Source: a virus (lineage: Duplodnaviria > Heunggongvirae > Uroviricota > Caudoviricetes). From it: a stretch of 14,606 nucleotides of DNA. The notes under the pieces are model-generated. The model searched no databases, was not told where the DNA came from, and saw only the letters and a program-made list of their open reading frames with translations. The translations under genes were made by a program, and so were the position numbers. Numbering within the stretch: the first letter of the stretch is position 1; each line of letters opens with the position of its first letter. The stretch is from IMG/VR virus record IMGVR_UViG_2703718848_000009, one strand, 5' to 3'. Shown one piece after another: positions 350-14,606 of the stretch.

Positions 350-1129
350 TTATTCATGAAACTCCTTCCAAGTATTAATATATTCTTTAACTGCTTCATT
401 ATCCGAAAATCCTTTTCCACCATCAATAATATATTTTACGTTTTTCCAGTCCATATACACAGACACAATAGCAACTAAATTTACCAGTTTAACTGGTAAC
501 ATATTCATAAAAATATCTAAGTAGTAATCTTGATGTTCTTCAGGGCATTTATCCTTAACAACCTTAAAAACAACATATACACATCGCACCATGGAAAATA
601 TGGCCATAGATGAATCCTCATCAATTTTATTTATGTAATTTTTAACATCCTCAATTTCGCAAGCTCCTTTTTCATCTATTTGTTTCTCAATAAAAGCCCA
701 TATTGCCTCTTCCAATTCACTAACAGCAGCAGATGAGCGGTATTCTTTTCCGTTAATGTTAATAGTAAAACAACTAAACTCCTCTCTTTCTGAAGAGATA
801 AGGTTATAAAAACCGTCTTCAAACCGTTTTAGAAGAACGTCTTTCTCTTGTCTTCTTTCGTCTTTAATTAGTTGCTCGTTTGCTTCTCGTTGAAGTTTCA
901 AGGAATTAATGAGCATAACAATTGTAATGAAGGTCAAGATAGGATTAAGCACACCTCCTACAAAATCCCCGAAAGTGCCCCAATCACCTTTATCATTGGA
1001 AAAACCCATCCATTTGCTAGCATTAAAGATATCTAACGGGCTATCCCAATGATTGAAATGAGAAAAGTAAAAATACCATACAATAGCTATTAATATAAGT
1101 GAAATAACTTTGATTGAGGGCATCTTCAT
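350..1129 (-). CDS. Hypothetical membrane-anchored protein with two N-terminal transmembrane helices and a ~180-aa soluble C-terminal domain; candidate effector of a two-gene cargo system
   Basis: 259-codon ORF. Hydrophobic segments VISLILIAIVWYFYF and FVGGVLNPILTFITIVMLINSL near the N-terminus. ATG at 1129-1127 lies immediately after the TAA of the upstream gene (TAA-ATG juxtaposed). Strongly AT-rich compared with the core of the island. No recognisable catalytic motif. Confidence 0.7.
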   Translation of the reverse strand: MKMPSIKVISLILIAIVWYFYFSHFNHWDSPLDIFNASKWMGFSNDKGDWGTFGDFVGGVLNPILTFITIVMLINSLKLQREANEQLIKDERRQEKDVLLKRFEDGFYNLISSEREEFSCFTININGKEYRSSAAVSELEEAIWAFIEKQIDEKGACEIEDVKNYINKIDEDSSMAIFSMVRCVYVVFKVVKDKCPEEHQDYYLDIFMNMLPVKLVNLVAIVSVYMDWKNVKYIIDGGKGFSDNEAVKEYINTWKEFHE

Positions 1130-1957
1130 TTACAATATTTCTCTAATTATATAAGCCTTGAGCTCTCCAATATGATCGCGCAACTCATAAGCAGAAATGG
1201 TTATAGGTATAAAAGCGTCTTTACCACCTCTGTTATTCCTATCAAGATTCCTTGAAAACTTATTTTTCTGAGACTGCAATACATGTTCCCAATTAAGATG
1301 GTGTCTAAAGGCAATTGAATCTGACTGTCTATCTAATAACAATCGACCAGTTCCTGTTAACATATTAAACCTAGTTATAATAACATTTTCTTCTACTGGT
1401 TGAGCAGATTCATGCTCTACATTGATATTGAAGAGCGTCTGCGTATCCATTTTAGCAACAACTAATTTTTTAGTTGGTGTTCTTCTTCTCAGAAGTACAT
1501 TATATTTTTGTTTCTCAACTGTTTTATGTAAATTCTGTATAGGTTCCTGAATTCTTATCAAAAGTTGTTTTTCAAGCGGTTTAAGACGCTCTACTAAGTC
1601 GATTGCTTTCTGGCTCTTAAGATGGTGAGCTATTCCCATTCCTTTAGAGATGTAATATGACATAACATCAAAAAAAACACCCCTGCCAATTTCATTAAAT
1701 CTTTTTATCTTTTCAGGATCATCAATTCTAAGTTCAAAATTTTGTCCAAACGATCCATCAAATGTATGTTTGAACATATTCCTAAGCCCATGTATAGAGG
1801 TTGATTTTTTGGGGACTGAATCATCTAAAATAGTGCTTGTTGTAATTTGGGTGATGTCAGAAGCTCCAGCAAAAACCTTTATGCCGGAATTCATTTCTAA
1901 TTCTTCAAAATCGTTCTGCCCATGTCCAACCACAACATCCATATCTAAGTTTATCAT
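1130..1957 (-). CDS. Hypothetical cytoplasmic protein (275 aa), first gene of the AT-rich two-gene cargo operon; candidate sensor/partner
   Basis: 275-codon ORF with ATG at 1957 and an AAAGAG Shine-Dalgarno-like element ~7 nt upstream. No predicted TM segments. N-terminal hydrophobic strand plus Gly-rich loop (DVVVGHGQ). Translationally coupled to the downstream membrane protein. No confident family assignment from motif inspection. Confidence 0.7.
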   Translation of the reverse strand: MINLDMDVVVGHGQNDFEELEMNSGIKVFAGASDITQITTSTILDDSVPKKSTSIHGLRNMFKHTFDGSFGQNFELRIDDPEKIKRFNEIGRGVFFDVMSYYISKGMGIAHHLKSQKAIDLVERLKPLEKQLLIRIQEPIQNLHKTVEKQKYNVLLRRRTPTKKLVVAKMDTQTLFNINVEHESAQPVEENVIITRFNMLTGTGRLLLDRQSDSIAFRHHLNWEHVLQSQKNKFSRNLDRNNRGGKDAFIPITISAYELRDHIGELKAYIIREIL

Positions 1958-2182
1958 ATGTTACTCTTTCAGAATTATCGTACATTAATTAAACAACATG
2001 CTATTTCCTTATATTATGTAGAAAACTTGAGTAGACGGCTATAGACAAATTCATACAATTCTGACTTTGTCTCAAAAACTTGAGTTATAACACTTCCAAC
2101 GTATGTAACGCACTGAAGCAACTGTTACTTAGAGCGCGTGTAGCCAAAAATCCCCGCTGGCGGTGCTGGTGGGTGGCAAGTT

Positions 2183-2440
2183 TTGACAGATGCATCCAAC
2201 GATCTGCACATAAAGTTTTCTAAAGCGGCGCGGTTGACACACTNNCGAAAAACCTTATCAAACCTTAGCATTTCTAAGCATAGCAACTTGACACTTTTCG
2301 CGATTTTTTCGGCTTTTTGACGTGGTAAATCTGGCACAAACCCAGTAATGGCGGGGATTACAGCGAGGTTGACACTTTTTCGCGTTCAGAGTGTAAAGTG
2401 TCAACCTGGCAAGCTGCTCAACTTGACACTTTTTGATGTC
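2183..2440. repeat. Array of TTGACAC(T)TTTTCG direct repeats (4 good copies plus variants and one inverted copy); candidate regulatory or iteron-like region between the HTH gene and the cargo operon
   Basis: TTGACAC at 2234, 2288, 2369 and 2423 (spacing 54/81/54 bp), each followed by a T-run and CG. Related TTGACA/TTGACG at 2183 and 2318; inverted GTGTCAA at 2398. NN at 2244-2245 falls inside one copy. Confidence 0.5.
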
Positions 2441-2966
2441 ATTGATGGTCTGATTTTTCCCATTCAGCCAGGGCGTTTAGTCCGGCTTCGCTCCAGTTAT
2501 CCAGCTCGTCAGGACAAGCATCAGCCACATAACAGACCTCACGTCGCAGCGTACCAATCACCAGTTCGGCATTCTGCCTGAGATCATATTGCTCGAAATA
2601 AAACTCAGCATCGCCGTCATCCATCCAAATCCCGCCATCATCAAGAAATTGCACTTCCCAGTCTAATTCCCCGGCTGCATCCAGCACACGTTGCTGTATG
2701 TCGTCGTCCGTTACTGGCGCAGGGATTATACCGTCTCTGGCCTTAACTGCTTTCCAGAACTCGCCCCACGTCATTTCCAGCGTTCTTTCTGGCCACATTT
2801 CAGAAACGGTGTCTTTCCCCTGTGCCGGTGGGCTGTTCCGCTGCTCTGTCGCCTCCACATCAATTTTTTTGCCAGACATGATCACTTCGCCTTTCTCGAT
2901 CCAGTCGTAAACTGTCTGGCGGCTTACGCCTTTGTATTTGGCGTATTCGGCTTTACTCATCAACAT
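2439..2966 (-). CDS. DNA-binding protein with N-terminal excisionase/AlpA/MerR-type helix-turn-helix and an acidic C-terminal domain
   Basis: N-terminus MSKAEYAKYKGVSRQTVYDWIEKGEV is a typical excisionase-family HTH. GAGGTGA Shine-Dalgarno 5 nt upstream of the ATG at 2966; the ORF-track extension to 3047 lacks an RBS. C-terminal half is Asp/Glu-rich. Confidence 0.7.
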   Translation of the reverse strand: MLMSKAEYAKYKGVSRQTVYDWIEKGEVIMSGKKIDVEATEQRNSPPAQGKDTVSEMWPERTLEMTWGEFWKAVKARDGIIPAPVTDDDIQQRVLDAAGELDWEVQFLDDGGIWMDDGDAEFYFEQYDLRQNAELVIGTLRREVCYVADACPDELDNWSEAGLNALAEWEKSDHQ

Positions 2967-3065
2967 GTAGCTCACCTCATGCATATACGATAAAAAATAA
3001 TTTAATGCGAAAAGGGAATGCGTTGTGGGTATGGAGGAAAGGGGCAATAACCGCCCCTTACTGAT

Positions 3066-3338
3066 TCAGTTGCGCCAGGATGGCTGGCTAAGCGTGGTTT
3101 TCATTACATCATTGACGACCTGCTTTACGATTTCTGTGTTGGCAGTCGTGCTTTCAACATCAACAAAGCCATAATCGCCAATTTCCACCGTCAGGGATTC
3201 CAGTTTCTTCCCCAGTGCATCAGGCAACTCTCCACTGAACCGGTGCCGAAGATTTTCCACCAGCAAAGCCCTGAATGCCTCGCTGTTCTCTTTTTTCTGC
3301 CATAGCTGGCGTTTATCCACTCTGATATTTAATTTCAC
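3066..3338 (-). CDS. Hypothetical protein (90 aa), translationally coupled to the upstream small regulator
   Basis: ORF start overlaps the stop of the 55-aa gene (ATGA overlap at 3335-3338). No recognised motif. Confidence 0.5.
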   Translation of the reverse strand: MKLNIRVDKRQLWQKKENSEAFRALLVENLRHRFSGELPDALGKKLESLTVEIGDYGFVDVESTTANTEIVKQVVNDVMKTTLSQPSWRN

Positions 3339-5445: not shown

Positions 5446-5733
5446 TTACTGACTACAATTGTTCTTTTTTTGGTATTTCCTGAATGCCTCACCATTGGGC
5501 TGATGTAATCCCATCCCGGCATGTGCCCGGCTGATGGTTTCGCGCATCTCCCCGAAATTATCCTGCCTTGCTGGTGGGCGTGCTGCCTTGTGGATACATT
5601 CCGCGCGACGTTTTGCCGCCTGTTCCCGTGCCTTGTCATCATTCGCCAGCATGATGACCTCAGCCCACCGCGCCGCCGCTCTCCGGTACAGACCACGCGC
5701 TTCCAGTGCTTCCGCTTTGCTGTCGTGAATCAT
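5446..5733 (-). CDS. PerC-family transcriptional activator-like protein
   Basis: KAEALEARGLYRRAAARWAEV matches the conserved PerC/Pch core as I recall it. AAGGAG Shine-Dalgarno upstream. Start overlaps the stop of the upstream ProQ-like gene (ATGA). Confidence 0.65.
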   Translation of the reverse strand: MIHDSKAEALEARGLYRRAAARWAEVIMLANDDKAREQAAKRRAECIHKAARPPARQDNFGEMRETISRAHAGMGLHQPNGEAFRKYQKKNNCSQ

Positions 5734-6272
5734 GCGCCTATTGTCTCCTTTGCTGCCCGGCGCTGGCGTTTGCGCTTCTCATTCAGCGCCACCAGCCGCG
5801 TTTCTGCGTCCTGTTGTTCCTGTGGTGTCACCTCGCCGCACGGCTGGCCTTTCAGGTCGTAGCGTACCCCACCAGCCATTAAGGCGCGGTAATAGTGCGG
5901 ACACTGCGCATAAGATGCCAGCGTCGCACGCAATGCCCCTGGCCCGAATGCCAGCCCCCTGACGGCGAGATCCTGCATCAGGTCGTCGAATATCCCCACC
6001 TTAAGCGGCTTCGGTGCTTCCCGGCTGAATAAGTCAGGCCACAACTCAGTGAGGCGGTTAACGCGCCTGCGGTTTTTGCGCTGGCGTTTGGTCATATGCC
6101 GCCACGGTGTCGCCCCTGTGGGCTTTTGCTGCGCTTTCTGGTTACCGGGCATCACTTTATGCGCCGATGTGGTTTTATCCTGCTCCTGCGCCGCCTGCGT
6201 CGTTTTCTGCGGCGTGCCGTAAATGCCTTTCGGTTTTCTGTTAATGGTCAGCTTAGTCATGCTTTGCCCCAT
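5730..6272 (-). CDS. ProQ/FinO-domain RNA-binding protein
   Basis: PKPLKVGIFDDLMQDLAVRG...LRATLASYAQCPHYYRALMAGGVRYDLKGQPCGEVTPQEQQDAETRL parallels the ProQ N-terminal FinO-like domain (recalled as ARPLKIGIFQDL...[35 protein letters not shown]). The true start may be the Met at 6260 rather than 6272. Confidence 0.75.
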   Translation of the reverse strand: MGQSMTKLTINRKPKGIYGTPQKTTQAAQEQDKTTSAHKVMPGNQKAQQKPTGATPWRHMTKRQRKNRRRVNRLTELWPDLFSREAPKPLKVGIFDDLMQDLAVRGLAFGPGALRATLASYAQCPHYYRALMAGGVRYDLKGQPCGEVTPQEQQDAETRLVALNEKRKRQRRAAKETIGA

Positions 6273-6594
6273 CGTTACAACTGTCTACCGATATAATTGT
6301 TTGATTTATTTAATGTTATTAACACATAACAAAAAAACAATCTGCAAACTGTCTACCAACTCTCTACAGTATTAATACATTGATAATTAATGACTTTTAC
6401 TAAATGGTAGACAGTGTAGATAGTTAAAAGAAAAATTTTAAAAATGAACCCATAACTATCTATTTTTAGATACCCCCGTGGTTTAGAAATATAAAATAAA
6501 CTGTCCACCTCTCTACCACATTAAAAATACCTATATAATTCAAAACATTAATTAGTAGATGGTTGGTAGAGGGTTAAGTGTATCTGTCTACCAA
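6273..6594. repeat. Iteron-like CTGTCTACC repeat array in AT-rich DNA, candidate replication origin downstream of the primase gene
   Basis: CTGTCTACC at 6281-6289, 6349-6357 and 6584-6592; inverted GGTAGACAG at 6407-6415; variants CTGTCCACC (6501), TCTCTACC (6510) and GGTAGAG (6565). Flanked by A/T runs. A 20-N gap follows at 6595-6614. Confidence 0.5.
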
Positions 6595-8391
6595 NNNNNN
6601 NNNNNNNNNNNNNNCTGGTAACCATCCATCAGCATCTTTATCTAACAGAACATTTGTGATCGTTCGCCCTTTATCTGGACCTTTAGTACATTTAGCCCGC
6701 TTGTACTCCTTTCCGTACTCAGCCATTGCCCCTGGCATATCTGTACCAAAGCGTGTCAGTGATACCGGTTTTCCCAGACCATGCGCAGACATATAAGCCA
6801 AATAAGCATGATACAGATATCGCCTCGGGCTAAATGGCACTATTTCTGCATTACCTACTATCATTCCCTCACATTTAACCAACGACATCAGATAACCGCA
6901 GAAGTCCACCAGCGAATCACCTTCACGCTTTATCAACAGTGCTTCTTCTGATTTTTGCTGCTCATAAAGTAGTCTTTTCGCTTCGTCCTGGTCGGCAAAT
7001 CGTGTAAGCAAATGGCGAATCACTACTGCCAGTTCCCCTTCTATCTTTTTCGCCAGCATCGGATCGCGTTCGTTCTCTGGTACAACCTCAGAGAAATTAA
7101 ATATTACTCGTCGACGCGAGATCCCCCCACTACGGTCGCTGAATGACATGGCATAATTGTTTACTACCAGCACTACCGCAGGAACGCGCGTGGAATAGGG
7201 CGCTTTGTGTTTCGGATCGATAGCCACCTTGTCACCGCCTGTAATGGCCTTAATCCCAGCACCATCACCTGCGTAGCGGGTCATGTCAGGCATGATAATC
7301 AGAGAATATCCCACCACTAACGCTCGTTCCCTCGCGTCTTCCAGCGCCTTCATGCTCGCCGATACTGTATTGGCCTTACCCGCCAGCATGGTACAAATCT
7401 CCGCCATCACACTTTTACCGCTTCCGCCCGGCCCCGTTACCTCAAGGAATAACTGCCAGTCGTACCGGTTCGCCAGTACCATGAATAATGCCGCCAGTAC
7501 GCGATCCGCTTTACGAGCATTATCCGCCACCGAACGACGCAACCACTTCCAGAAATTCGGCGCATGTGTTGCCAGCGTTTCCCCCTCTTCTGGCGGGCTG
7601 AACGGTAATTCACTGGCATTTAACAACCAGTCATTTTTGTTGTGTTCCCGAAAATTTCCTGTCCTGATATCAAAAACACCGTTACTGAACCCAATAAGAT
7701 TTCTGTCCGCTCCCCCCATAACAGGTAGACTCAATTTCATTGTCTCTACGGCAAATTTAATGGCGTTTTGCGAATAACTAATTTCGGCATCAATAAAAAT
7801 CTTCGCCATAGACCGCTGGAGTTCCTTATCAGATACAGGCTCCCAAACAATTCCGTTGTAATGGTGAACTACATCAGAATCATCATTTATCGCCAGTGCT
7901 CCTCCATAATGTTCAAGTAACACTTCCCCTCTCTGGCTGGCTCCCATCTGATTTAATGCAGGCTTGGGTAGACCACTATTTTTTGTAGCTAATTTCATCA
8001 CTGAAACTTCCCCGTGCTCAGCCTGTTCGCGGATCCGTTGCAGGTAGTCGCGCCAGTTCTCCGGTTCCTGGTCGGTGATACCTTTGTATAATTTCGCCTC
8101 CTGTACGCCAGCCAGCGCCAGCTTTTCAGCGATAGTATTGATCTGGATTGGCTCTATCTCCCCCGCGATATAGACACGCGCAAAACGGCGTTTCTCGTCA
8201 ATAATGCGGATATTCGCCAGGTCTGCCAGTTGCTTTGGCCCCAGGTAAACAGGAGGCACGTTATCGCCGTGTTTTCGTCCTTCACTTTCAATCCAGTGTT
8301 GAGCATGGGCGTAAGCATCCGTCCCGGCAAAAATGATTACCTCAGTGAATTTATCCTTCGGCTGATATTTTAGACTCGGTGCGTTTTTCAC
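6574..8391 (-). CDS. Phage/plasmid primase, P4-family (alpha-like) with SF3-helicase-type P-loop NTPase domain
   Basis: 605-codon ORF. Walker A motif VTGPGGSGKS and a downstream Walker B-like hydrophobic-acidic stretch (LIIMPDM). The C-terminus is interrupted by the N-run at 6595-6614 (X residues in the translation), so the 3' end is uncertain. Confidence 0.85.
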   Translation of the reverse strand: MKNAPSLKYQPKDKFTEVIIFAGTDAYAHAQHWIESEGRKHGDNVPPVYLGPKQLADLANIRIIDEKRRFARVYIAGEIEPIQINTIAEKLALAGVQEAKLYKGITDQEPENWRDYLQRIREQAEHGEVSVMKLATKNSGLPKPALNQMGASQRGEVLLEHYGGALAINDDSDVVHHYNGIVWEPVSDKELQRSMAKIFIDAEISYSQNAIKFAVETMKLSLPVMGGADRNLIGFSNGVFDIRTGNFREHNKNDWLLNASELPFSPPEEGETLATHAPNFWKWLRRSVADNARKADRVLAALFMVLANRYDWQLFLEVTGPGGSGKSVMAEICTMLAGKANTVSASMKALEDARERALVVGYSLIIMPDMTRYAGDGAGIKAITGGDKVAIDPKHKAPYSTRVPAVVLVVNNYAMSFSDRSGGISRRRVIFNFSEVVPENERDPMLAKKIEGELAVVIRHLLTRFADQDEAKRLLYEQQKSEEALLIKREGDSLVDFCGYLMSLVKCEGMIVGNAEIVPFSPRRYLYHAYLAYMSAHGLGKPVSLTRFGTDMPGAMAEYGKEYKRAKCTKGPDKGRTITNVLLDKDADGWLPXXXXXXXLVDRYT

Positions 8392-8678
8392 TTCTTACCT
8401 CCCGCAACCAACATTGCCCGGATTTTTTTAATATTCGTGGCTGCACGTCTCGCCACTGCCTGTTGTTTGTTTTCCACCAGAATAAAATCACGATCAAACT
8501 GACGGCGCGGCATTACGCAGTCATATTCGTAAGCCTCACGGCGGTAGGTGATATTGCCTGGCGTAACGTGACGAATAACCACCCGTCCCCCGCGTCTGGT
8601 GTCCCGGAAAATATCACCGGGGCGGATTTCAGGCCGAGAGAGGCCGCTGGCAGTAAAGCCAGAATTTTTCTTTTTCAT
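8388..8678 (-). CDS. Hypothetical basic protein (96 aa), immediately upstream of and overlapping the primase start
   Basis: ATGA overlap with the primase start at 8388-8391. Part of the tightly packed minus-strand operon. Confidence 0.55.
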   Translation of the reverse strand: MKKKNSGFTASGLSRPEIRPGDIFRDTRRGGRVVIRHVTPGNITYRREAYEYDCVMPRRQFDRDFILVENKQQAVARRAATNIKKIRAMLVAGGKK

Positions 8679-11845: not shown

Positions 11846-12043
11846 TCAGGTAGCTGTTCCGCGTGATTCCGCAATACGCTGATTAATCCACTCGTCAATT
11901 TCACTCTCAACGAAAGCAATAGCTCGCGAGCCAATTTTAACTGATGCAGGAAATTTACCTTGCCCCATAAGGCGATAAATCCATGCCTTGCTATATCCAG
12001 TTCTACGCTGAACTTCTGTTAAACGAATAAGCGTATTTGACAT
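11846..12043 (-). CDS. alpA: AlpA-family phage transcriptional regulator (HTH)
   Basis: MSNTLIRLTEVQRRTGYSKAWIYRLMGQGKFPASVKIGSRAIAFVESEIDEWI matches the AlpA consensus (L.RL.EV...TG.S...IYRL...G.FP..VK.G.R...W.ESEI.EWI). GAGGT Shine-Dalgarno 7 nt upstream. Confidence 0.85.
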   Translation of the reverse strand: MSNTLIRLTEVQRRTGYSKAWIYRLMGQGKFPASVKIGSRAIAFVESEIDEWINQRIAESRGTAT

Positions 12044-12111
12044 ATATTTACCTCATAACGTCTACTCAATTTGACGAGGTAATCATGGCACAGAAATAAC
12101 GAATATTTTCA

Positions 12112-13163: not shown

Positions 13164-14378
13164 TCACCCGCATTTTCCGAACTCACCATGCACCACATTT
13201 CCGCCATGCTCGAGCGAATCCATATAATCAGCGTACCACTGAAGCATTTCCCGCCGCCCATCCAGATATTGCGCATGGTTGTATGTGCCACGAATTGAGT
13301 TTTTATCGACGTGCGCAAGCTGTGTCTCTATCCACGCGGTGTTATAGCCCTGCTCATGCAAAATGGTGCTCATAGTGTGCCGGAAGCCATGACCAGTAAC
13401 CTTTCCGTTATAGCCGATGCGTTTAAATACTTGGTTTATGCTAGCCTCGCTCATTGTTTTCCTTGGATCATTACGGCCGGGAAACATAAGCGGATAATTG
13501 CCAGTTAGTTCTTTAATCTGCCCAATAAGCGAAAGAGCCTGCTCAGACAAAGGCACTACATGAGGGCGACGCATTTTCATCCGTGAAGCAGGTATCTCCC
13601 AGATAGCCTTGTTGAGATCGATTTCATCCCATAATGCACCGCGCAGTTCGCCAGTCCGCAAACCGGTGATAATCAGTAAACGAGCCGCCATAACAACCAA
13701 TGCACTTCCTGAGTAACTGGACAATGCCTTGAAAAAATCAGGTAATTCTTTGGCTGTGAGGAAAGGATAATGATTAGATTCATGACCTTGCATCGCGCTG
13801 GTGAGATCCGGTGCAGGGTTATACTCAGCACGTCCAGTGACAATTGCATAGCGGAAAACTTCCCCACATCGCTGCCTCACTTTTTTGGCTTTTTCGGTAG
13901 CACCGCGCCCCTCGATGCGCCGCAGCACATTCAGCAGTTCAAGTGGTTTGATTTCGGCGATTGGTTTTTTGCCAATGTAAGGGAACACATCTTTGTTGAA
14001 GGCTTCGAGGATGTCTGAAGCATAACCAGCAGACCATTTTTTTAATTTGCTGCTGTGCCACTCAAGGGCAATATCTTTGAAGGTGTTGTTTAACTGCGTT
14101 TCCCGGGCAATCTTTTCCTCTCGTTTCGCTTCCATCGGATCGATACCCCCAGCGATACCCCTTTTAGCTTCTTCACGTTTTGCACGAGCATCAGCCAAGG
14201 TAACTTCAGGATACACACCTAGTGCTAACAGCTTCTCTTTACCAGCTACACGATACTTGAAGCGCCAATATTTTCCTCCACTAGGTTTTACCAAGAGATA
14301 CAGACCACCACCATCAGCCAGCTTGTAAGCCTTCTCTTTTGGCTTGGCAGTGTCTATTTGACGGGCATTGAGTTTCAC
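13164..14378 (-). CDS. int: Tyrosine recombinase, P4-type integrase
   Basis: 404 aa. N-terminal MKLNARQIDTAKPKEKAYKLADGGGLYLLVKPSGGKYWRFKYR is the typical P4-integrase N-terminus. Catalytic-domain residues R..HxxR..Y are present (GLRTGELRGALW, GHGFRHT, RGTYNHAQY). GTG start with GGAGG Shine-Dalgarno. Adjacent to the tRNA-derived att core. Confidence 0.9.
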   Translation of the reverse strand: MKLNARQIDTAKPKEKAYKLADGGGLYLLVKPSGGKYWRFKYRVAGKEKLLALGVYPEVTLADARAKREEAKRGIAGGIDPMEAKREEKIARETQLNNTFKDIALEWHSSKLKKWSAGYASDILEAFNKDVFPYIGKKPIAEIKPLELLNVLRRIEGRGATEKAKKVRQRCGEVFRYAIVTGRAEYNPAPDLTSAMQGHESNHYPFLTAKELPDFFKALSSYSGSALVVMAARLLIITGLRTGELRGALWDEIDLNKAIWEIPASRMKMRRPHVVPLSEQALSLIGQIKELTGNYPLMFPGRNDPRKTMSEASINQVFKRIGYNGKVTGHGFRHTMSTILHEQGYNTAWIETQLAHVDKNSIRGTYNHAQYLDGRREMLQWYADYMDSLEHGGNVVHGEFGKCG

Positions 14379-14380
14379 TT

Positions 14381-14434
14381 GGGGGTACCTCCACTAAACC
14401 GAACAGCAAATACCCCCAAAAGTACCCCCAATTG
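14381..14434. promoter_or_regulatory. TACCCCC motif cluster between int and att (putative arm-type binding sites), counterpart of 153-177
   Basis: GGGGGTA (inverted) at 14381-14387; atacccccaaaagtaccccca at 14410-14430. Confidence 0.35.
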
Positions 14435-14451: not shown

Positions 14452-14527
14452 ACTTAAGTAGACGTCAAAAGACTAAAAGGGGCGCTAACATGCGGATTAT
14501 AAGAGGTTTTTAAATACTTGAGTAGAC
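14452..14527. repeat. ACTTGAGTAGAC 12-mer motif copies near att, also found upstream of the cargo operon
   Basis: ACTTAAGTAGAC at 14452-14463 and ACTTGAGTAGAC at 14516-14527. An identical 12-mer is at 2025-2036 and a partial copy (AAAACTTGAGTT) at 2075-2086. Confidence 0.4.
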
Positions 14528-14534
14528 TTGGGGA

Positions 14535-14576
14535 GACATTAGAATGGTGCCGATAATAGGAGTCGAACCTACGACC
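14535..14576 (-). other. 3' 42 nt of a tRNA-Thr(CGU) gene (T-arm, acceptor 3' strand, CCA); attachment-site core, not an intact tRNA in this window
   Basis: Reverse complement reads TAATGCGAAGGTCGTAGGTTCGACTCCTATTATCGGCACCA, matching from memory the 3' part of enterobacterial thrW from the anticodon loop onward. The sequence 5' of this (14577-14606) cannot form an anticodon stem or D-arm. Confidence 0.6.
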
Positions 14577-14606
14577 TTCGCATTACCGAAACTCGCGTAA
14601 CCACAT

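Follow-up and report, generated by a model that had tools for sequence, protein, structure and literature searches.

The stretch analyzed here (the window) is a 14,606-nt viral record, IMG/VR IMGVR_UViG_2703718848_000009, which represents a Gram-negative phage satellite of the phage-inducible chromosomal island (PICI) type at the tRNA-Thr(CGT) gene thrW, beside proA. We were concerned with an array of short TTGACAC repeats in this island and with the neighboring gene for a 175-aa helix-turn-helix (HTH) protein, which we propose as the cognate binder of the array. All of the island genes lie on the minus strand, and the backbone has the PICI hallmarks: int, alpA, a pri-rep gene with an adjacent origin, and unidirectional transcription. 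The HTH gene (2439–2966, minus strand; RefSeq WP_021534223-like) is followed on its 3' side by the array and then by two variable, AT-rich cargo genes, also on the minus strand, encoding proteins of 275 aa (1130–1957) and 259 aa (350–1129). The att core, ATGGTGC(C)GATAATAGGA, is found at 77–93 and 14544–14561, and the AT-rich cargo genes are therefore inside the island.

The exact heptamer TTGACAC occurs five times in the whole window, on the plus strand at 2234, 2288, 2369, and 2423 and on the minus strand at 2398. All five copies fall within 196 bp (2234–2429), compared with 1.85 copies expected per window and ~0.025 per stretch of this length. The TTGACAC repeats described in the first-pass annotation were confirmed and STRENGTHENED; they are real and clustered, and both the four direct copies spaced by 54, 81, and 54 bp and the inverted copy were correctly placed. 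The degenerate copies are also real (TTGACAG at 2183–2189, TTGACG at 2317–2322, and TTTACAC at 2391–2397 on the minus strand). The repeat unit had been given a TTTTCG tail as well; the heptamer holds, but the tail is true of only three copies. The extended consensus, drawn from 47 distinct sites in many loci, is [AG][CG]TT(G/t)ACACTTT(T). The putative recognition unit is 12–13 bp long, [AG][CG]TTGACACTTT(T), and is present in six or seven copies, mostly direct, with one inverted pair.

The window itself is defective within the array. It reads NN at 2244–2245 and lacks 11 nt compared with near-identical E. coli genomes that carry the same cargo and array (n = 57) and that read GGTTGACACACTTGACACTTTTTCGCG at this place; the true array therefore has six exact copies. 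Judging from these sequences, two overlapping TTGACAC heptamers appear to have been collapsed in the assembly. These are sites A and B (2234–2249, plus strand), whose true sequence is TTGACACACTTGACACTTTTTCGCG. Site C (ACTTGACACTTTTC, 2286–2299, plus strand) has columns that are invariant in alignment A4, in which site D (GGTTGACACTTTTT, 2367–2380, plus strand) and site F (ACTTGACACTTTTT, 2421–2434, plus strand) were also checked. Site F ends 5 bp short of the HTH-gene stop codon. Site E (GGTTGACACTTTACAC, 2391–2406, minus strand) is inverted and combines the exact TTGACAC at 2398–2404 with the overlapping TTTACAC at 2391–2397; it makes one inverted pair with site D and another with site F, and its AAAGTGTCAA is invariant in the same alignment. 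A degenerate outer site, the plus-strand TTGACAG noted above, completes the set.

Two further blocks are conserved between the heptamers. The first, GCATTTCTAAGCAT (2268–2281), lies between sites B and C. The second, CCAGTAATGGCGGGGATTACAGC, a 23-bp stretch equal to CCAGTAAYGGCGGKGCTTRCAGC (2342–2364), occupies the center of the array between sites A–C and D–F and is kept in 10 of 11 aligned loci. It is a candidate cleavage site or host-factor site. A 24-mer identical to the central block recurs a single time outside the family, in an unrelated viral contig (L096:12139–12159), where it adjoins a short open reading frame (ORF) resembling the small terminase subunit (TerS) of Citrobacter phage phiNP and flanked by GGTAAC motifs. 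Throughout, the invariant columns of the multiple alignment coincide with the heptamer sites.

Other explanations for this conservation were considered. Relatives differ by 1-nt and 10-nt indels, and the array region is therefore noncoding, which rules out protein-coding constraint. An intrinsic terminator formed by the E/F inverted pair was rejected on three grounds: the stem would be AU-rich, the loop varies (18–40 nt), and the motif is found in direct orientation as well. A structured RNA was rejected on the last of these grounds too, and Rfam matched nothing in the array. The array is 42–46% GC and is not AT-rich, and inspection by eye gave only a possible integration host factor (IHF) site between the repeats, with one mismatch (TATCAAACCTTAG, 2256–2268).

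The first-pass annotation had suggested that the array might be a stack of promoters, a set of iterons, or a regulator binding array. In favor of sigma-70 promoters driving the cargo operon, each with TTGACA as its −35 element, six perfect hexamers lie upstream of the cargo. However, none of them, and none of the seven copies in the relative L003, has a −10 partner at 16–18 bp. All copies but one (five of six) are on the plus strand and therefore point away from the minus-strand cargo. The conserved unit, [AG][CG]TTGACACTTT, is longer than a −35 element, and the cargo carries its own mobile leader. A promoter stack is extremely improbable on these data.

To see how the array relates to its surroundings, we compared related islands. 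DNA similar to positions 1900–3100 is present in 167 of 5,426 complete E. coli genomes. In the relatives that lack this cargo (more than 100 E. coli at 84–97% identity), the match starts at query position 347–369, equivalent to window positions 2246–2268. This is the outer edge of the array, and the array is included in the homology. To its left, the same slot holds an AAA ATPase and DUF4435 (PARIS-like) pair in O104:H4, a DUF4747 pair in APEC IMT5155, and small ORFs in other strains. Across the relatives, the six or seven heptamers keep fixed positions relative to the HTH-gene stop codon. The HTH gene and array are the same in islands that have another integrase and att site (between smrA and abgR), and the array is retained regardless of the downstream DNA, even where almost nothing is there (L006). 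This is the outcome that the first-pass annotation predicted: between the array and att the cargo changes, and the motifs are retained. On this comparison, the array is conserved backbone and not cargo.

The cargo pair of the window (350–1957) matches phrog_13337 and phrog_8999 and shows a weak PADLOC match to PDC-M02B; it is a candidate mobile defense system. The pair and its leader are also found in Klebsiella phage Kp4865-4 (L093:1887–3494).

The association between gene and array extends beyond E. coli. Loci identified by the protein alone, at 32–66% identity, came from Rouxiella, Raoultella, Buttiauxella, Pantoea, Scandinavium, Serratia, and Erwinia. These carry three to six TTGACAC/TTTACAC sites in mixed orientation directly 3' of the HTH gene, with diverged spacers, and an insertion displaces the sites in three of the loci. 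The density of sites in these loci is 3.33/kb in the 520 bp after the HTH gene versus 0.11/kb elsewhere. Conversely, when viral contigs were scanned with the motif only, 65 loci were recovered, and the HTH gene abuts the motif pair in 49 of them. PICIs without the HTH gene (EcCIMP1, EcCICFT073, and EcCIIHE3034) have no more than one site each (0–1). Very dense TTGACAC/TTTACAC arrays were also seen in three AT-rich viral contigs (L037, L039, and L051; e.g. L039:3930–4120), with no homologue of either of the two HTH families described here detectable nearby.

These comparisons also bear on the proposal that the repeats are replication iterons, acting as an origin or as an enhancer like crr of P4. 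The repeats are direct, intergenic, and part of a replicating element. A canonical PICI origin lies elsewhere, however, at 6279–6592, where at least six AACTGTCTACC iterons in both orientations surround 31%-GC DNA directly 3' of the D5/DUF5906 primase-helicase gene (6574–8391, minus strand). Moreover, the HTH gene and array are unchanged in islands in which an unrelated DUF927 enzyme serves as the replication protein, and the GC content of the array given above is not that of an AT-rich origin. We assign the iteron proposal next to no probability.

We then examined the 175-aa protein. Its residues 1–40, MSKAEYAKxxGVSRQTVYDWIxKGExxxSGxKIDVEATE, are almost invariant across the family, and the remainder diverges. 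Pfam returned an HTH_17 match only, below threshold, and the best PHROG match is "terminase small subunit." In an AlphaFold model with a predicted local distance difference test (pLDDT) score of 89.7, a winged helix is connected by a disordered linker to a compact alpha/beta domain. When the family profile was aligned with the annotated TerS of phage phiNP, the first 40 residues matched with an hhalign probability of 96.8% and an E value of 2.7e-10. Phage phiNP is lambda-like, with terS directly before a gpA-type terL. By this profile alignment, residues 1–40 share homology with the DNA-binding domain of the small terminase of a lambda-like phage, and the protein has the TerS-like winged-helix DNA-binding domain that characterizes the Rpp/cosB module of PICIs. 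A covariation test between the recognition helix and the motif variant (TTGACAC or TTTACAC) gave no signal, because helix and motif are both nearly invariant. Two proposed identities were rejected. The protein is not RgdR, which is a 99-aa DUF4222-type protein, and it is not the alpA_1 product of EcCIMP1, a different, Xis-like gene in an island without the 175-aa protein and the motif.

The protein also shows weak matches to TIGR01764 "excise" and to PHROG Cox/excisionase families, and the array is at the island end opposite int. It could accordingly be imagined as an Xis/Cox-like recombination directionality factor, with the array as an architectural site of the int-distal att arm. The geometry does not agree with this. 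The array is 2.1 kb from the att core at 77–93, with cargo in between, and this distance varies in relatives, whereas sites of such a factor would be expected within ~150 bp of the core and to covary with the integrase; the same protein and array occur with two integrase/att types. An AlpA/Vis-type protein is, in addition, already encoded beside int (alpA, 11846–12043, minus strand). Direct-repeat arrays bound by Cox, Apl, Xis, and BldC have a periodicity of ~10 bp and are located at att sites or promoters. In contrast, the sites in the window are 25–81 bp apart, far from att, and independent of integrase type. We regard a role in excision as improbable.

The motif scan revealed a second satellite family. 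Here we refer to islands with the 175-aa protein as family A and to loci such as L054, L059, L062, L079, L083, and L085 as family B. About 12 loci without the 175-aa protein carry denser TTGACAC/TTTACAC arrays immediately 5' of a different gene of ~186 aa, and the TTGACAG variant of the outer site in the window is found in these arrays as well. The product begins with MSLMSVSQYAKHAGMSRQALYTWE...GKID and has the same recognition helix as the window family; its N terminus can be matched to phiNP TerS as well as to the window family. On the far side of the array, the sequence is nearly identical to the phiNP cos region, with GGGTCCTTCC at the cosQ position and CACGGGCATTGCGCGCCGCG at the cosN position. 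Where phiNP has three GGTAACA repeats before terS, the satellites have TTGACAG/TTTACAC/TTGACAC repeats. The order in family B (e.g. L062:7260–8141) is the lambda order, cosQ-cosN-cosB-terS, with only cosB exchanged. Since family B keeps cosQ and cosN and swaps cosB, the heptamers there occupy the position of the R elements. Family B is rare in E. coli (1 of 5,426 complete genomes), and its protein is absent from 50,697 phage records.

Together, these observations indicate that the array is very probably the cognate binding-site array of the adjacent 175-aa protein. The term "regulator binding array" therefore appears right in kind, in the sense of a conserved array of protein-binding sites. 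What the protein would do there is a separate question, and one answer is regulatory: it might be a transcription factor with a terminase-like fold, with the array as its operators, either blocking or insulating read-through from the island operon into the cargo or regulating a promoter of the downstream genes. The array does lie between the last backbone gene and same-strand cargo or a small ORF, the database names are those of regulators (MerR-family regulator in RefSeq, "Repressor" for a UniRef homologue), and the family B array is 5' of its gene, as an autoregulatory operator would be. Against this, neither the window array nor that of L003 contains a site resembling a promoter or a terminator, and the array is kept whatever lies downstream. 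In family B, the array occupies exactly the interval from a helper-type cosN to the gene, in place of the helper R elements, and the specific match of the N-terminal domain is to a TerS. We find an operator function unlikely, although it deserves more weight than the promoter, iteron, and excision proposals.

A second answer, which we consider the best reading and to which we give roughly even weight for and against, is that the array and protein form a satellite packaging-specificity module, in which the array would serve as a cosB- or pac-like recognition site. Repeated R-type elements lie beside a TerS-type gene, as in a lambda-type cos. In family B, the heptamers stand where cosB would be. 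The HTH gene is the last backbone gene; in EcCICFT073 this position is taken by rppA and its cos sites, and in EcCIIHE3034 by terS. The geometry would be compatible with a pac-type site, with sites A–C on one side and D–F on the other side of the central block (2342–2364).

In such a module, induction of the island would lead to synthesis of the 175-aa protein as the last product of the island operon. The protein would bind sites A–F and coat the array into a higher-order complex, perhaps with bending of the DNA through the conserved blocks, and so mark replicated island DNA for packaging in the manner of Rpp/cosB in EcCICFT073 and of gpNu1 with the R elements in lambda. Its C-terminal domain would then present the replicated island concatemer to the terminase of the helper phage. 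The cut might be made in the central block, or cutting might be of the sequence-independent headful kind.

Several results weigh against a packaging function. No cosN of the lambda, phiNP, or P2/P4 type was found within three mismatches at or near the array, and a blastn-short search for cosN in 12 family A loci gave no match. A regular-expression scan of the same number of family A loci for cosQ (GGGTCCTTYC-like) found none, whereas cosQ is present in family B and phiNP. The array is 3' of the gene, whereas it is 5' in lambda, EcCICFT073, and family B. On the protein side, the N-terminal fold fits Xis and Cox about as well as TerS. The C-terminal domain is unlike the TerS oligomerization domain, and Foldseek searches of BFVD and PDB returned no informative structural relative for it. 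A phmmer search of the 175-aa protein against PDB, which includes RppC (6hn7), gave nothing at E ≤ 1; BLASTP against RppA gave a nonsignificant match in the HTH region only (E 0.089); and no significant sequence similarity to Nu1 was detected. Finally, none of the 50,697 phage records has the protein (tblastn) or the array (blastn), and no helper phage is known.

Systems of this kind, pairing a TerS-like protein of the satellite with a recognition sequence of its own, are already known. More tentatively, and with a probability we place clearly below even, the 175-aa family and its array could be an undescribed, widespread packaging hijack of Enterobacterales satellites, consisting of a terminase-type DNA-binding domain with a new C-terminal adaptor and a bipartite site (R heptamers flanking a central block) with no helper-type cosN. 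It might then act as a self-contained pac for headful helpers or as a decoy that titrates the helper terminase. We did not find the protein family, a defined motif, the cosN-less 3' architecture, or a definition of a PICI cosB in the searchable literature.

Enterobacterales PICI-like islands are often scored as incomplete, with no packaging module recognized, for example the EcCIMP1-type "Type C" elements (PMC11773190). For such islands, a defined 12-bp motif together with a protein family would provide a concrete, testable packaging determinant. The family is widely spread, occurring in the 167 E. coli genomes mentioned above and in Klebsiella, Raoultella, Pantoea, Serratia, and others. The heptamers would also be the first explicit candidate sequence for the R elements of a satellite. 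Apart from packaging, the outer edge of the array is the point of cargo exchange and thus the exact boundary of a defense-cargo hotspot, which may aid the mining of islands for new defense systems.

The first-pass annotation also described a 12-mer, ACTTGAGTAGAC, and its coordinates are right: exact copies at 2025–2036 and 14516–14527, a one-mismatch copy at 14452–14463, and a partial copy at 2075–2086. It was proposed that this 12-mer links the upstream region of the cargo to the int/att region, with the copies being either binding sites of one shared protein or the scar of a recombination event. In favor of such a link are the exact copies at both places, the near copies beside each, and another one-mismatch copy upstream of alpA. 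The claim that a shared 12-mer is very unlikely by chance did not survive simulation. The window contains 20 direct exact pairs of 12-mers, ~13 of them independent, and Markov-1 simulated sequences with the composition of the window gave 10.3 ± 4.1, so that ~10 shared pairs are expected by chance.

The two places also behave differently in relatives. The copies at 2025–2036 and 2075–2086 are in the cargo leader and upstream region (1958–2125, minus strand), which is part of the mobile cargo module and not of the array. Klebsiella phage Kp4865-4 has a leader 79% identical to the ~160-bp one of the window (1964–2124), again adjoining these two cargo genes. In the phage, the 12-mer site reads ACTTAGTTATAC, with 4 of 12 mismatches, and is not conserved. 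No copy lies near the array in relatives that have different cargo. On the att side, two copies of ACTTNAGTAGAC and one of ACTTGGGGAGAC (14452–14537, plus strand) lie on the int-proximal arm and are not related to the array. In each of the thrW-type islands examined (L001, L002, L004, L007, and EcCIMP1), the two ACTTNAGTAGAC copies keep a constant distance from int, even though EcCIMP1 has a different backbone and cargo. The 14452 and 14516 copies thus recur within the att arm and follow the integrase type, as integrase-arm sites would; the 2025 copy does not. We conclude that the match of the 2025 copy with the att side is best explained by chance and that a link between the two regions is very improbable. 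The att-arm repeats are probable binding sites for a recombination protein.

The one-mismatch copy of the 12-mer at 12060–12071 (minus strand) precedes the start of alpA by 17 nt and is retained along with this alpA allele. AlpA or Int may bind this copy and those of the att arm. We also noticed a tandem repeat, TACCCCCAAA(A)G(A/T)TACCCCCA, close to each end of the island (155–174 and 14411–14430), which probably represents integrase arm-type sites; at the equivalent place, ATTAACTACACC occurs twice in islands with the other integrase.

The rest of the island is laid out as follows, all on the minus strand. The int gene is located at 13164–14378, and between it and the next gene lies an int-alpA RNA (Rfam RF02996, 13052–13119; 45.5 bits versus a gathering score of 35.8). 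After alpA come antA and then an icd-like region, followed by a DUF4222 gene (8388–8678), the primase-helicase gene, and a ProQ/FinO gene (5730–6272). Several further genes of the window have no assigned function. At the int end (14544–14606), only ~42 nt of the tRNA-Thr 3' half is present before the sequence diverges from thrW, so that the island represents one unit in a tandem arrangement at this site. In related genomes, a vat/MarR island remnant is on the other side.

The module can be compared with several known systems. The pac sites of P1 and SPP1 have several short TerS-binding repeats on either side of a central region. The flanking of the central block by A–C and D–F would be comparable, but the window array has no methylation-type motif.

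In lambda, three R sites lie within ~120 bp between cosN and the Nu1 start. The window array resembles these R elements, recognized by gpNu1, and the GGTAACA repeats of phiNP in consisting of short repeats in mixed orientation that would be bound by a TerS-type winged helix, and the N-terminal 40 residues of the window protein are homologous to a lambda-like TerS. Compared with lambda, the array contains a larger number of sites, extends further, and is placed on the opposite side of the gene, and a nicking site is not recognizable.

Among experimentally studied islands, EcCIMP1 is the closest one at the same att site, and it is without the module. The most informative comparison is with the Rpp/cosB system of EcCICFT073, in which cosN is located just 5' of rppA and the helper cosQ/cosN are kept while cosB is island-specific (Fillol-Salom et al. 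2019, PMC6739421). The R elements of that cosB were inferred in the Rpp work and never defined at the sequence level (PMC6739421). Unlike RppA and RppC, with which it shares no detectable sequence homology, the window protein has an alpha/beta C-terminal domain and not a helical dimerizer. Unlike EcCICFT073, the window has an array of ~200–250 bp with six or seven heptamers 3' of the gene, and no cosN/cosQ was found in the island. The two systems nevertheless share the PICI context and a small satellite protein that combines a TerS-like winged helix with a C-terminal domain of its own. In both, this protein is encoded by the last backbone gene, beside the DNA it is presumed to recognize, and its recognition residues are conserved within the family. 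The sister family (L062 type) follows the identical logic, with cosB swapped.
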